Positions 38,459 to 42,295 are shown, counted from the stretch's first letter. The stretch: DNA of 64,000 bases from Myxococcota bacterium (GCA_039028875.1 JBCCHE010000002.1:5212-69211); one strand, 5' to 3'. Notes: generated by a model not told the origin, from the sequence alone. Numbers and translations: made by a program.

Positions 38459-41400
38459 CTACTCCCAGGTGGCATTGCCCACGAGCGACCCATGCTCACC
38501 ACCAACCAGGTCGTGAACGACGGTTCCGCCGCCCTCCTGGAGGGGCCAGTATCCGACGAGACCAGGCTCCGTGCCGATGAGGTCGCGTCCGATGGTGTCC
38601 ACGACTTCCTCAGGCGTGAGGGCCACGTCCCAGATCCGTAGCCAGCCCACGAGCCCTTGGAAGAAGCCAGTGCCCGCCGGGAAACCCCCACCGATGAGCA
38701 CAGGGCCGTTCGGGTAGCCGACCCGAAGTGGGCGGTAGGCCGCGTAGACCGTGCCTGTGACCTCAGTCTCGCGAATCTTCACTCCGTTCAGGTAGAAACG
38801 AAGCGCAGCGCCGTCGTAGACGATGGTGAGGGTGTTCCACTCGTCGGCAAGTGGTGGCGTCCCAAAGTTGTCGAGGAAGCGACCGTTGCTGGTATTCATG
38901 CGAACGAGGAGAGCCGGTTGGTTCGGGTTCACCGCAACCATGAAGCCAAGGGCCTCTGACGCGCCCAAGCGTCGCGTGCCGTCCTCGACCAAGACCTGCA
39001 AACCGTCGACGGGGTCGGCCTTGAACTGGACCGAGAGGGTGAACTGATCGGTGATGCCAAGGTTTGCGAGCGTCGAAGGCAGATCTACGTAGGCGTCGGC
39101 TCCCGGCAGGCGAACCGCGGTCTCGGGGATGGTCAGGGTAGCGACCGGCGGCTCGAGGTCCGCCATGCCTTCGACGAAATCGGGATCCCCCGTCACGGCC
39201 TGGTCCAAGACGCACGCGTCGAGCAAAATCGGATCCACGACGCCGTTCGCAGTGCACACGGCTTCCGCTTCAGTCCGCACCTCTGGGGACAGGTTCTGCG
39301 CATCCACTCGCCCGTAGGGGAAGGATGGGTCGGTGAAGATCTCGGTGCTCTCTCCCTCGCCGTAGTCGAACAGGCTTTCTTCTGGCGTCACCTGCCAGGA
39401 TCGACCCCACTCGTAGAGGTCAAAATTGGTGACAGGCGTCGGAAGGGGCACGTCCGTATCACGGACCCGAAGGTCGTTGTAGGCCGAGCCATCCACGTCG
39501 CCCATCAAACCAACCATGTCGTAGTCGACCGACGCAGTGAGTTGAATATGCACGTTGAAGTGGTCGCCACGATGGTCGATGCGGACGCTCTCCCCGGCGG
39601 GCCATTCGATCCGGGTGGAAGCACCACCAACGGACAGCGTTCCGCCCGAGGGAAGGTCGAGCGAGCCATCGACAGGGACGGGCTGGTGATTCACGAACAC
39701 GTGTTCTTCGTCGAGGTAGAGGGACACAACGTCGTCTACGACCTGCACGGCGACCGCCGAGTTGACCGAAACCACGCGTGAGTTGGCGTAGGGAGCAGTG
39801 CGGACCTGCACTTCGAAGCCGCCCTGGCGTGAGCGAGTCAGTACATGCTCCCCAACGGTCTGAAGGTCGTACGAGAGCCCGTCGAACGTCCGGTAGTGCG
39901 GGTCCCCGAACGAGTCGGACGATGGTCCCCCGCCACTCCCGTTCCCATCGCCGTCATCGCCGTCGCCCCCGCCGCTGCCGTCGCCGTCGCCGTCGCCGTC
40001 GCCATCACCGTCGCCGTCGCCATCACCGTCGCCGCCGCCATCACCGTCGCCGCCGCCATCACCGTCGCCGCCGCCATCACCGTCGCCGCCGCCATCACCG
40101 TCGCCGCCGCCGTTGCCACCGTCGTCGTCGTCATCATCGTCGTCGTCATCGCCGTCGTCGTCATCGCCGTCGTCGTCATCGCCGTCGTCGTCGTTCTCGC
40201 CTGGCTGGATCGGTCCGAGCTCGAGAAGACCGAGCCCCGATGACAGAATGCTCGGGAGCAAACTGGTCTTCACGAAGGCGAAGTAGTTGCCGCCGATCGC
40301 GCCATCTTCTTGTGCCGTCCACTGAACCTTGAACTTCGTCTGTCCGTTCTGAGCGGGCGCGCTACCGACCTTCCGAGTCGCGTACTCTCCTTCGTCACGC
40401 TCGTACTTCTCGTAGATGATGACCTCGTCGACGTTGTAGAGCGCGGTGCCGAAAAAGAAGTGAGTGTTCTTCGGGTCAAGCTCGACTTCGACCGTCACGA
40501 GGTCGAGAGCCTCGAAGCTGCGCACGTCAGCCACGGCGGTCCTGACGGTGGGCGTGTTGCCGATGAGGTTGGTGCTCTTGAGCTGGAGCTGGCCTCCGAT
40601 GTCCACATCGAGGACACCTAGAAGAGTCTTCGCGTCCTTGGCGACACCGACTCCGAAGTCCCCCGACAACTGGTAGTCCGATGCGTACTTGTTGTTGAGC
40701 ACCTGCGCTTTGACGGTGGAGATGTTCCCCTTGTACGTCGGTCCCATTTCGATGCGAAGCGTCTCGAGAGCGAGGTCGGCGATGTAGACGTCCACCCCGA
40801 GAAGGAGCTCCGCGAACGCGAAGGCCTTGACTTCTGGTTCGATGCGGAGCTGTGCGGATGGGTTGCTTAGATTCGGCAGCTCCACCGTGAACGTCGGGTC
40901 GGGAAAGTCCCCCCCATGGTCGAAGTAGAGCTCGCAAGACTCATCGACTGGGCAAACGATTCCCCCTTCCACGTTGACGCTCGCCTTGGTGCCGAACTCG
41001 ACTCCGACCGTGGCCCCGGTGACCTTGCCGCTCACCTCGAAACCGAGCCCCAATGGTACGGTGGCACCCCCGTAGAAGATTGGAACGCCGACGATTGGGA
41101 TCGGGACGGCGATGAGTTCGACGTCGCACTTGTACTTGGCCTGCAGCGACGCGGTGACCTGAATCTTGGTCTCGAAGCCGCCGTCGAGCTGTGCACGCAC
41201 GCCGACCTTGTCCTCGGTGTCGGGGTCATCGTCCCACCGGGCGATGATGTCGATCTTCTTGTTCAACGTGAACGAGGCGGGAAGGCCGGTCAGCGTAAAG
41301 GGCAAGGCGCTTGCCGCCTCGCAGGAGAAAGGCCCGAGTGCCCGGGTCCCGACCGCTCGTTTCGCGACCGTGGGCTCCGGCTTCAGCGTGAACTGGTAGC

Positions 41401-42295
41401 TTCCATCCGCCCGAGCCTCGACGTCGTAGTAGTCGCGAATGGGATCGCTCACGACCGTCTCGCTTGCGGAGAGGTCGAGGGTCTCGTCGATGGCAAAGTC
41501 CTCGAACATTTCGCTAAGCGGAACCACTTCGATCGTGACCTCGAGTAGACCGGGCTCGGGACGCGAAACAGCCGCAACCCGACCCCCAACAGACAGCGTT
41601 TCCCGGGAAAGAAGAACTTGACCGACTTCCACGGCACCAATGCCTTCGAGCGTGATTGTCAGTTCGGAACCGAGACCGAACGCTTCTCGAGAACCTTCGA
41701 AACGGGGACCCTCGACGACCTGCGCGTCGTTGACGAGAACCGCGCCGTCCACGGGCCGTGCAACGGCGACGACGACGGGTGGTGAGGTGACGCCGTCGGC
41801 CTCGGCCGTCACCGTCGCAGAACCAATGGCGGTCCGCGCGATGGCGAGACCGTCACCTTCGAACTCCAGGGTTGACGTGTCATTGCTCCGCCACGTGAAC
41901 TGGGCGTCGACGCGCTGGTCGGCGGCGTCGTAGGCCAGGGCCGTGAACTGATAGCTCTCGCCTTCTGCCGTCAGGACGAGCGCCCCTGGGGTGATCTCGA
42001 TTCGCGATACCTCGGCACCGTCGACTCCTCCCCCGTGCCCGGCCGACCCTCCGCCGCCGCTGCCTCCCGCGTTCGGCCCCTCGCCGTCGCCGCCGGCGTC
42101 TCCACAGCCTGAAGCGGCCAAGCCGAACAAGAGGAGTCCGGCTGCGAGCGCGCGCCGCAAACCGTGGCGGTGGCTGCGCGGCGTTCGACGGGTTTCAAGA
42201 TGGGTGGGGTCTGCGCTTAAACGGGGCATGTCATCTCCTCCAAGATCGGGCCCAAAGGCCGTGCCTGCGCGTTGGATCTGCACGGCCCGTGCCAC
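38459..42295 (-). CDS. Giant multidomain lipoprotein: Big_2 Ig-like domain, ~520-aa unassigned region, poly-Asp/Gly repeat linker, VWD domain with GDPH motif, and LamG/concanavalin-like domain
   Basis: Lipobox LLLFGLAASGCGD; an alternative ATG is at 42229. Big_2 is ITPGALVLTAEGESYQFTALAYDAADQRV...ATVTAEADGVTS. VWD is SFGDPHYRTFDGLSYDLQTVGEHVL...GLMGDVDGSAYNDL...EWGRSWQV. LamG is FTLSVQFKAD...WNTLTIVYDGAALRFYLNG...LVGWLRIWDVALTPEEV. Confidence 0.85.
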   Translation of the reverse strand: MARAVQIQRAGTAFGPDLGGDDMPRLSADPTHLETRRTPRSHRHGLRRALAAGLLLFGLAASGCGDAGGDGEGPNAGGSGGGGSAGHGGGVDGAEVSRIEITPGALVLTAEGESYQFTALAYDAADQRVDAQFTWRSNDTSTLEFEGDGLAIARTAIGSATVTAEADGVTSPPVVVAVARPVDGAVLVNDAQVVEGPRFEGSREAFGLGSELTITLEGIGAVEVGQVLLSRETLSVGGRVAAVSRPEPGLLEVTIEVVPLSEMFEDFAIDETLDLSASETVVSDPIRDYYDVEARADGSYQFTLKPEPTVAKRAVGTRALGPFSCEAASALPFTLTGLPASFTLNKKIDIIARWDDDPDTEDKVGVRAQLDGGFETKIQVTASLQAKYKCDVELIAVPIPIVGVPIFYGGATVPLGLGFEVSGKVTGATVGVEFGTKASVNVEGGIVCPVDESCELYFDHGGDFPDPTFTVELPNLSNPSAQLRIEPEVKAFAFAELLLGVDVYIADLALETLRIEMGPTYKGNISTVKAQVLNNKYASDYQLSGDFGVGVAKDAKTLLGVLDVDIGGQLQLKSTNLIGNTPTVRTAVADVRSFEALDLVTVEVELDPKNTHFFFGTALYNVDEVIIYEKYERDEGEYATRKVGSAPAQNGQTKFKVQWTAQEDGAIGGNYFAFVKTSLLPSILSSGLGLLELGPIQPGENDDDGDDDDGDDDDGDDDDDDDDDDGGNGGGDGDGGGDGDGGGDGDGGGDGDGGGDGDGDGDGDGDGDGDGDGSGGGDGDDGDGNGSGGGPSSDSFGDPHYRTFDGLSYDLQTVGEHVLTRSRQGGFEVQVRTAPYANSRVVSVNSAVAVQVVDDVVSLYLDEEHVFVNHQPVPVDGSLDLPSGGTLSVGGASTRIEWPAGESVRIDHRGDHFNVHIQLTASVDYDMVGLMGDVDGSAYNDLRVRDTDVPLPTPVTNFDLYEWGRSWQVTPEESLFDYGEGESTEIFTDPSFPYGRVDAQNLSPEVRTEAEAVCTANGVVDPILLDACVLDQAVTGDPDFVEGMADLEPPVATLTIPETAVRLPGADAYVDLPSTLANLGITDQFTLSVQFKADPVDGLQVLVEDGTRRLGASEALGFMVAVNPNQPALLVRMNTSNGRFLDNFGTPPLADEWNTLTIVYDGAALRFYLNGVKIRETEVTGTVYAAYRPLRVGYPNGPVLIGGGFPAGTGFFQGLVGWLRIWDVALTPEEVVDTIGRDLIGTEPGLVGYWPLQEGGGTVVHDLVGGEHGSLVGNATWE
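40021..40110 (-). repeat. Five perfect tandem copies of an 18-nt unit inside the coding sequence
   Basis: catcaccgtcgccgccgc x5 (plus strand) encodes GGGDGD x5. It is flanked by GAC/GGC dinucleotide-codon runs (39950-40020) and three copies of a 15-nt cgtcgtcgtcatcgc unit (about 40141-40190) encoding GDDDD. Confidence 0.9.

Follow-up and report, generated by a model that had tools for sequence, protein, structure and literature searches.

What does a von Willebrand type-D (VWD) domain with an intact GDPH motif, the site at which animal proteins such as MUC2 cleave themselves, do in a bacterial lipoprotein? The question is raised by a 64,000-nucleotide (nt) stretch of DNA from a Myxococcota bacterium (GCA_039028875.1 JBCCHE010000002.1:5212-69211), in the following referred to as the window, to which all coordinates refer. 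The first-pass annotation had read the minus-strand gene at 38459-42295 as encoding a surface lipoprotein with a VWD domain of the metazoan pattern, which might cleave itself next to a strongly acidic Asp/Gly tract and thereby shed or rearrange its VWD-LamG head. The reading that we favour, with moderate confidence, is that of a modular envelope lipoprotein of a Gram-negative bacterium, built from a lipid anchor, a beta-rich stalk, a flexible acidic spacer and an exchangeable ligand-binding head, in which the Asp798-Pro799 bond of the motif may or may not be cleaved. The features of this protein are the following, with residues counted throughout in amino acids (aa) of the 1278-aa numbering that starts at GTG 42295:

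38459..42229, minus strand: lipoprotein coding sequence from its probable ATG start (open reading frame list, translation, Shine-Dalgarno sequence at 42235-42241)
42104..42229, minus strand: putative signal peptide with an Arg-rich n-region and the lipobox ...FGLAASG/C, ending at Cys64 (read from the sequence)
41747..42010, minus strand: D1, aa 96-183, an immunoglobulin (Ig) fold of the Big_2 type (AlphaFold model with a predicted local distance difference test, pLDDT, of ~90; Foldseek; Pfam matches of homologues)
41345..41746, minus strand: D2, aa 184-317, a beta-sandwich without family assignment (AlphaFold, pLDDT 81-89)
40556..41344, minus strand: D3, aa ~318-580, with long beta-strands of 15-21 residues (two models, pLDDT 56-80)
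40202..40555, minus strand: D4, aa 581-698, an Ig-like beta-sandwich ending in an LELG strand (AlphaFold, pLDDT up to 94)
39926..40195, minus strand: Asp/Gly low-complexity tract, aa 701-790 (composition, Tandem Repeats Finder)
39170..39922, minus strand: prokaryote-type VWD module, aa 792-1042, consisting of the VWD core (Pfam, aa 796-946) and a conserved extension of ~95 residues (Pfam, PDB match, module profile)
39896..39907, minus strand: GDPH motif, aa 797-800, with the candidate scissile bond Asp798-Pro799 (translation, family-profile alignment)
39212..39256, minus strand: Cys1014...Cys1028 pair in the extension (alignments)
38603..39103, minus strand: LamG/concanavalin-like domain, aa 1065-1231 (Pfam Laminin_G_3)

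The assignment of the VWD domain itself holds. Pfam VWD (PF00094) matches aa 796-946 with E 1.5e-14 and 55 bits, where the gathering cut-off is 22.9, and the match spans positions 4-154 of the 156 in the profile; a sequence search of the PDB returned FCGBP (8rde, E 3.8e-18) and also MUC5AC. The module reads SFGDPHYRTFDGLSYD, with GDPH at its N-terminal edge and Y.TFDG thereafter, which is the canonical position in the VWD profile; the codons of the motif are, exactly as annotated, the complement of 39896-39907. The alignment with FCGBP extends past the VWD domain to ...AVCTANGVVDPILLDACVLDQAVTGD, which is paired with the start of an FCGBP C8 domain. Within the extension lies the pair Cys1014...Cys1028 (AVCTANGVVDPILLDAC), whose columns are nearly invariant in 51 bacterial modules; judged by its alignments, this segment resembles the start of C8 or the end of RGM_C, the Pfam match to the latter being weak (E 0.015).

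Among bacterial proteins the module is in familiar company. Its relatives are short bacterial secreted proteins that carry the same ~95-residue extension, of the form ESLFDY..GE.T..F ... AE..C......D..L..AC..D; of the conserved ESLFDY...C...C...D extension in the profile, the window protein has both Cys and most of the nearly invariant columns. Scored against a profile built from 182 bacterial modules, the window copy reaches 278.5 bits (positions 3-255 of 257, that is 253 of 257 covered), as compared with 55 bits against Pfam VWD; it is therefore a typical copy of an abundant prokaryote-type family and not an unusual metazoan-like insertion, and the metazoan pattern that had been read into it is better replaced by the bacterial one. 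The module has 43 Asp/Glu against 13 Arg.

The size of this family became apparent when a 247-position module profile was searched against 1.84 billion cluster representatives, which gave 9,616 matches at E<=1e-3, 6,044 at E<=1e-10 and 3,003 at E<=1e-30. A set assembled for detailed comparison comprised the best 150 proteins and seven earlier homologues (153 in all, with 391 aligned modules), and the whole module was matched in 136 of the 153. At the motif position, 232 of the 391 modules have GDPH, 37 GDVH, 12 GDTH and 6 GEPH; since GDPH is the commonest form, the intact motif is the default of the family and no special feature of this protein. Typical modules resemble the window copy in their length of ~250 aa, in the core followed by an extension with one Cys pair and in the GDPH at the start, and lipoprotein or secretion signals are frequent: many of the proteins start with bacterial signal peptides or lipoboxes. 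Pfam recognises VWD in all 51 module proteins scanned, where the partner domains include CarboxypepD_reg, CARDB, PKD, Big_1, OmpA, RTX and MopE. Some of the top matches (among P0022-P0050) are giants that measure 2,500-7,100 aa and contain 2-15 modules each, and several of them lack Cys in every module. The module type is already labelled in databases, as in MBI2375581.1 (P0036) from a Deltaproteobacteria bacterium, which NCBI names 'VWD domain-containing protein', and domain shuffling is routine in bacterial surface proteins, so that the locus adds one more member. It differs from the other prokaryote-type VWD proteins in its N-terminal stalk, whose pairing with VWD is unique, in the preceding acidic tract and in the LamG partner, Laminin_G_3 being found in 1 of the 51 scanned proteins.

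The metazoan VWD assemblies (FCGBP, D4 of MUC2/MUC5AC, RGM/hemojuvelin) share with the window protein the PF00094 signature, GDPHY.TFDG, GL.G..DG...ND, W.V and the C8- or RGM_C-like beginning. In contrast to them, the window protein has no TIL and no full C8, stands in a bacterial lipoprotein context and has none of their many conserved Cys, so that no disulfide bridges the potential cut: the stretch aa 455-1013 is free of Cys, the module has its only two in the extension (C1014 and C1028), and the disulfide within VWD that holds the fragments together in MUC2, FCGBP and RGM is absent. Most of the inspected bacterial modules likewise contain 0-5 Cys, far below the conserved Cys of animal VWD-C8 units.

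These features bear directly on self-cleavage. In that scenario, the VWD fold strains the Asp798-Pro799 bond, the bond is hydrolysed autocatalytically as in MUC2, MUC5AC, FCGBP and RGM, and the VWD-LamG head of ~480 aa is shed or dissociated by force, in parallel to the bacterial SEAL and MAIN/GAIN autoproteolytic domains. By analogy with the animal proteins we consider such a release possible but doubtful. The motif sits at the exact profile position within a fold that is conserved among the bacterial modules, its G, D and H reach a conservation of 90% or more in the alignment of the 51 bacterial proteins, and in FCGBP every VWD domain that bears GDPH undergoes cleavage, which takes place even at neutral pH, in the endoplasmic reticulum (PMC8267560). 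If Asp798-Pro799 does self-cleave, the head would be held only through a few residues (SFGD), or would be released, because there is no Cys N-terminal of the cut from aa 455 onwards and none in the VWD core to hold it covalently; shedding in particular gains from this arrangement. On the other hand, nothing was found in the literature searched on bacterial VWD domains or their processing, including any report of a cleaved one, and Pro is the least conserved, variable position of the motif, GDVH, GDTH and GEPH being common. That Pro varies while G-D-x-H is kept suggests a role of the motif in folding, for which cleavage would be optional. An enrichment of upstream Cys in modules with Asp-Pro was considered and rejected: p = 6e-5 over all modules becomes p = 0.16 with one module per protein, so that the modules bear no mark of a selection for tethering.

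A wider form of the same idea concerns the family as a whole. Around two thirds of the best-matching bacterial modules carry Asp-Pro, and bacterial VWD modules might be conceived as a widespread self-cleaving class in surface proteins, the third after SEAL and MAIN/GAIN, with the GDPH autoprocessing of animals being ancient and shared with bacteria; this is rather unlikely in our estimation, if not to be dismissed. SEAL, MAIN (microbial GAIN) and the FrpC module have in common with it the concept of a eukaryote-like or Asp-Pro self-cleaving module that is placed between anchor and adhesion domains for release or cross-linking, whereas their folds and chemistry are unrelated to those of the window VWD; GAIN and SEA cleave by Ser/Thr N-O acyl shifts. 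The self-processing module of Neisseria FrpC performs a Ca2+-dependent Asp-Pro 'clip and link'. Recent work has demonstrated that SEAL and GAIN-like autoproteolytic domains function in bacteria, and they provide a precedent for eukaryote-like autoproteolytic domains that release bacterial surface proteins (bioRxiv 10.64898/2026.05.12.724683).

The acidic tract in front of the module had been thought to promote the cleavage by making the local environment strongly acidic. It consists, in line with the ~90 residues reported, of 90 residues (43 G, 42 D, 3 N and 2 S), and GDPH begins 6 residues after it rather than the ~10 given before. Its DNA is made up of in-frame tandem repeats, with 13.5 copies of period 18 and 5.9 copies of period 15 between 39957 and 40194 (Tandem Repeats Finder), an encoding that fits a disordered spacer. 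An acidic upstream region is found in only 3 of 368 related VWD modules, which leaves the acid-environment argument, and with it one of the grounds for self-cleavage, without support. The tract thus fits a disordered, length-variable linker and not a pH-lowering device; its length could probably be changed through repeat slippage.

C-terminal to the VWD module, the LamG assignment is confirmed by Laminin_G_3 (PF13385; E 5.6e-18, 66 bits against a gathering cut-off of 27.6). The VWD-LamG half (38462-39922, minus strand) contains 2 Lys in ~490 residues and is strongly acidic. The proximity of a lectin-like domain invites a second use of the Asp-Pro bond, in which the lipid-anchored Asp/Gly tether would retain a reactive Asp anhydride after cleavage and LamG would guide the formation of an ester or amide bond to a polysaccharide or protein, as in the heavy chains of inter-alpha-inhibitor and in Neisseria FrpC. 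The near absence of Lys from the head would limit reaction with itself, although few Lys are expected anyway at ~63% G+C, and LamG adjoins VWD in the rare combination mentioned above. The chemistry of the Asp-Pro cleavage product is established, also with reference to proteins without vWD domains, but the anhydride of FCGBP is simply hydrolysed and a cross-link was not found (PMC8267560). As the proposal stands on analogy only, we hold cross-linking of this kind to be very improbable.

Turning from the head to its attachment, the favoured reading of a modular lipoprotein requires a real gene and an anchor. The minus-strand open reading frame 38459-42295 has, as annotated, 1278 codons counted from GTG 42295 (open reading frame list and translation); however, ATG 42229 lies 5 nt past the Shine-Dalgarno sequence GGAGGAG (42235-42241) and is the likely translation start, which would give 1256 aa and a stop codon. 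Protein-level homologues exist for both halves, and the frame is for this reason taken to be a real gene rather than a chance one; its G+C is uniform with the remainder of the window, which resembles an ordinary Gram-negative chromosome with RND efflux, a true FadL/TodX gene, an MscK-like channel and an extracytoplasmic function (ECF) sigma/NrsF pair. An exact look-up of the protein from ATG 42229 returned no identical record. In a full-length homologue search of a collection of 5.8 billion clusters, which was limited to 8,000 candidates and swamped by the poly-Asp tract, every protein recovered covers at most about half of the window protein; the halves were also searched separately. When metagenomes were scanned with the VWD-LamG half, close relatives were lacking as well, and neither the cluster collection nor the metagenome scan contained another protein that pairs the stalk with VWD-LamG.

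The call of a lipoprotein is corroborated. The protein starts with a signal peptide that ends in a lipobox with the invariant Cys: LAASG/C follows an n-region and an h-region, the residue at -3 being a non-canonical Ala, as read by eye and not by a dedicated predictor. In 8 of the 9 relatives retrieved as proteins, and in the L008 open reading frame, a lipobox Cys likewise ends the signal peptide (L-T-G-C, V-T-A-C and L-S-A-C are among the forms), the exception being P0017, whose N-terminus is truncated. Cys64 would accordingly serve as the lipid anchor in the cell envelope. The six Cys outside the lipobox fall into three plausible pairs (325/390, 448/454 and 1014/1028), and three predicted disulfides fit an exported protein. 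The long Arg-rich n-region (42140-42229, minus strand) contains GLRRALAAG, and the signal peptide could be of the twin-arginine (Tat) type.

Behind the lipobox and a Gly/Ser linker follow the N-terminal ~600 aa, for which neither Pfam nor NCBIfam has a family. An AlphaFold model built on 10 sequences shows four beta-rich domains (mean pLDDT 77, predicted template-modelling (pTM) score 0.71). For D1, the Big_2 domain annotated from the outset finds no Pfam match in the window sequence itself, even at E<=1, yet it is indirectly supported by the homologues and the model: Big_2 (PF02368) matches at the aligned position in 5 of 10 homologues (best E 1.5e-10), and Foldseek superimposes D1 on the Big_2 domains of intimin and of phages with probability 1.0 and root-mean-square deviations of 2.4-3.7 A. 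D2 has no match in Pfam, NCBIfam or the PDB. D3 holds four Cys that are conserved in two family alignments (C325, C390, C448 and C454), and its profile finds nothing in the PDB at E<=10. D4 closes with LELG (aa 693-696, 40202-40213), of which L and E are invariant or nearly so across the family. When the whole model was compared with the PDB and BFVD, only the Big_2 domain was matched, and nothing significant was obtained for D2-D4. The stalk of ~600 aa would hence comprise one Big_2 Ig domain and three further beta-rich domains held by predicted disulfides.

The long strands of D3 could also be seen differently, namely as a beta-pore-forming or membrane-inserting module in a toxin-like effector with a targeting head. 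D3 does have long amphipathic beta-hairpins, Foldseek with D3 only ranks pore-state chains of MACPF, gasdermin and pleurotolysin first, and a constant N-terminus joined to a variable C-terminus recalls polymorphic systems. These structural matches, all at E >= 2.4e-3 and TM scores <= 0.31 on a model with a pTM of 0.47, are non-significant and were rejected; moreover, no Pfam, NCBIfam or PDB profile match to a toxin or pore-forming domain was found in the N-terminal module, the heads are binding-type domains rather than toxins, and immunity-like neighbours were not seen at five loci of stalk relatives. A pore-forming function is therefore given next to no credence.

What argues for an exchangeable head is the family to which the stalk belongs, a very rare and uncharacterised family of lipoproteins. 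Nine relatives with 24-47% identity were found in the 5.8-billion-cluster collection and 2 more in metagenome contigs; the members identified in the homologue searches are P0001, P0002, P0003, P0005, P0014-P0018 and L008. They share with the window protein the lipobox (apart from the truncated P0017), the Big_2-type domain, D2-D4, the LE[LI]G end and the set of four Cys, the exception being P0014, a truncated copy that breaks off inside D3 and so has neither D4 nor its closing LE[LI]G strand. The strand that closes D4 is conserved as LE[LI][GA] in the window protein, P0001-P0003, P0005, P0015-P0018 and L008 (2130-2606). Directly after it, the full-length members differ in their heads:

Window protein: VWD-LamG
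P0015 and P0016: DUF11
P0017: RCC1-like propeller
L008: PD40 propeller
P0001, P0002, P0003 and P0018: domains without family assignment
P0005: no head

VWD-LamG and the long Asp/Gly spacer occur only in the window protein. In its alignment, the LE[LI][GA] boundary resembles a recombination junction for head swapping. Two stalk relatives, L008 (358-2606) and L007 (8001-11035), are split into consecutive open reading frames, the head running on in the next frame, which may reflect either frameshifts or assembly errors.

Taken in this way, the window protein is most likely a binding or adhesion protein, in which stalk and spacer would keep a ligand-binding head away from the membrane; here this head combines a prokaryote-type VWD module with a LamG lectin-like domain on its C-terminal side. 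Three points weigh against this interpretation: (i) confidence in the D3 model is moderate (pLDDT 56-80; pTM 0.47 for D3 only); (ii) D2-D4 have no recognisable relatives, and thus the role as a stalk rests only on their position and beta-rich folds; (iii) to our knowledge, a ligand has been described for none of the bacterial VWD modules.

Two genes downstream on the same strand had been considered as possible partners, together with a third gene of the window that is needed for comparison:

37061..38383, minus strand: putative outer-membrane beta-barrel gene, weakly FadL-like (Toluene_X, 16.8 bits)
36331..37041, minus strand: dual-specificity phosphatase gene (Pfam DSPc, 76.4 bits)
54223-55467, plus strand: genuine FadL/TodX gene for a transporter of the outer membrane (Toluene_X, 60.9 bits)

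The gene order lipoprotein, barrel, phosphatase is borne out by the open reading frame list and Pfam, as is the identity of the phosphatase by its DSPc score. The FadL-like character of the barrel is only partly sustained: its Toluene_X match remains below the cut-off of 29.7 bits and its protein has no PDB sequence match, while the N-terminal NPAG hatch motif is common to it and the true FadL gene (pairwise E 1e-4). The barrel protein has 440 aa, a signal peptide and a C-terminal Phe; the gene at 54223-55467 is a much clearer FadL than the one beside the lipoprotein gene. The three genes are separated by gaps of 75 nt and 19 nt, and co-transcription of the lipoprotein and barrel genes is likely because no terminator-like site was found in the 75-nt gap between them.

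Such an arrangement would suit a functional operon unit in uptake, export or signalling, in which the barrel might display the lipoprotein on the surface. A conserved neighbourhood with barrel and phosphatase was nevertheless rejected: among the called neighbours at the five loci of stalk relatives, many of them without Pfam assignment, none had a Toluene_X/FadL-family or DSPc match (0 of 5 loci), which leaves the proposed partnership with the barrel unconserved. Together with the sub-threshold FadL assignment, this makes a dedicated three-gene unit improbable, the short gaps notwithstanding.

Further genes of the window may be mentioned in passing. Adjoining the lipoprotein gene, the plus-strand frames 42539-43717, 43801-44355, 44413-45048 and 45014-46357 include a cytochrome c + DM13 lipoprotein and a CHRD-domain protein, with an ECF sigma factor and an NrsF anti-sigma factor between these two; DM13 and CHRD are further 'animal-named' extracellular domains near the VWD gene. 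Two lipoprotein genes in tandem, at 31241-32581 and 32701-33930 (both plus strand), are paralogues of each other (27% identity, E 2e-23) and have no Pfam family.

By itself the locus has little significance, being one more bacterial lipoprotein with a VWD domain. If the bacterial modules do cleave themselves, cleavage in this lipoprotein would shed the VWD-LamG head from the stalk or equip the Asp/Gly tether with a reactive Asp anhydride. A major evolutionary study of mucin domains places the invention of VWD early in the eukaryotes and records the domain in eukaryotes alone (PMC4948705), yet VWD modules with GDPH are abundant in bacteria, and cleavage of the bacterial modules bears on whether GDPH self-cleavage predates animals. 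The stalk family, for its part, is a compact case in nature of heads being swapped on a fixed scaffold.

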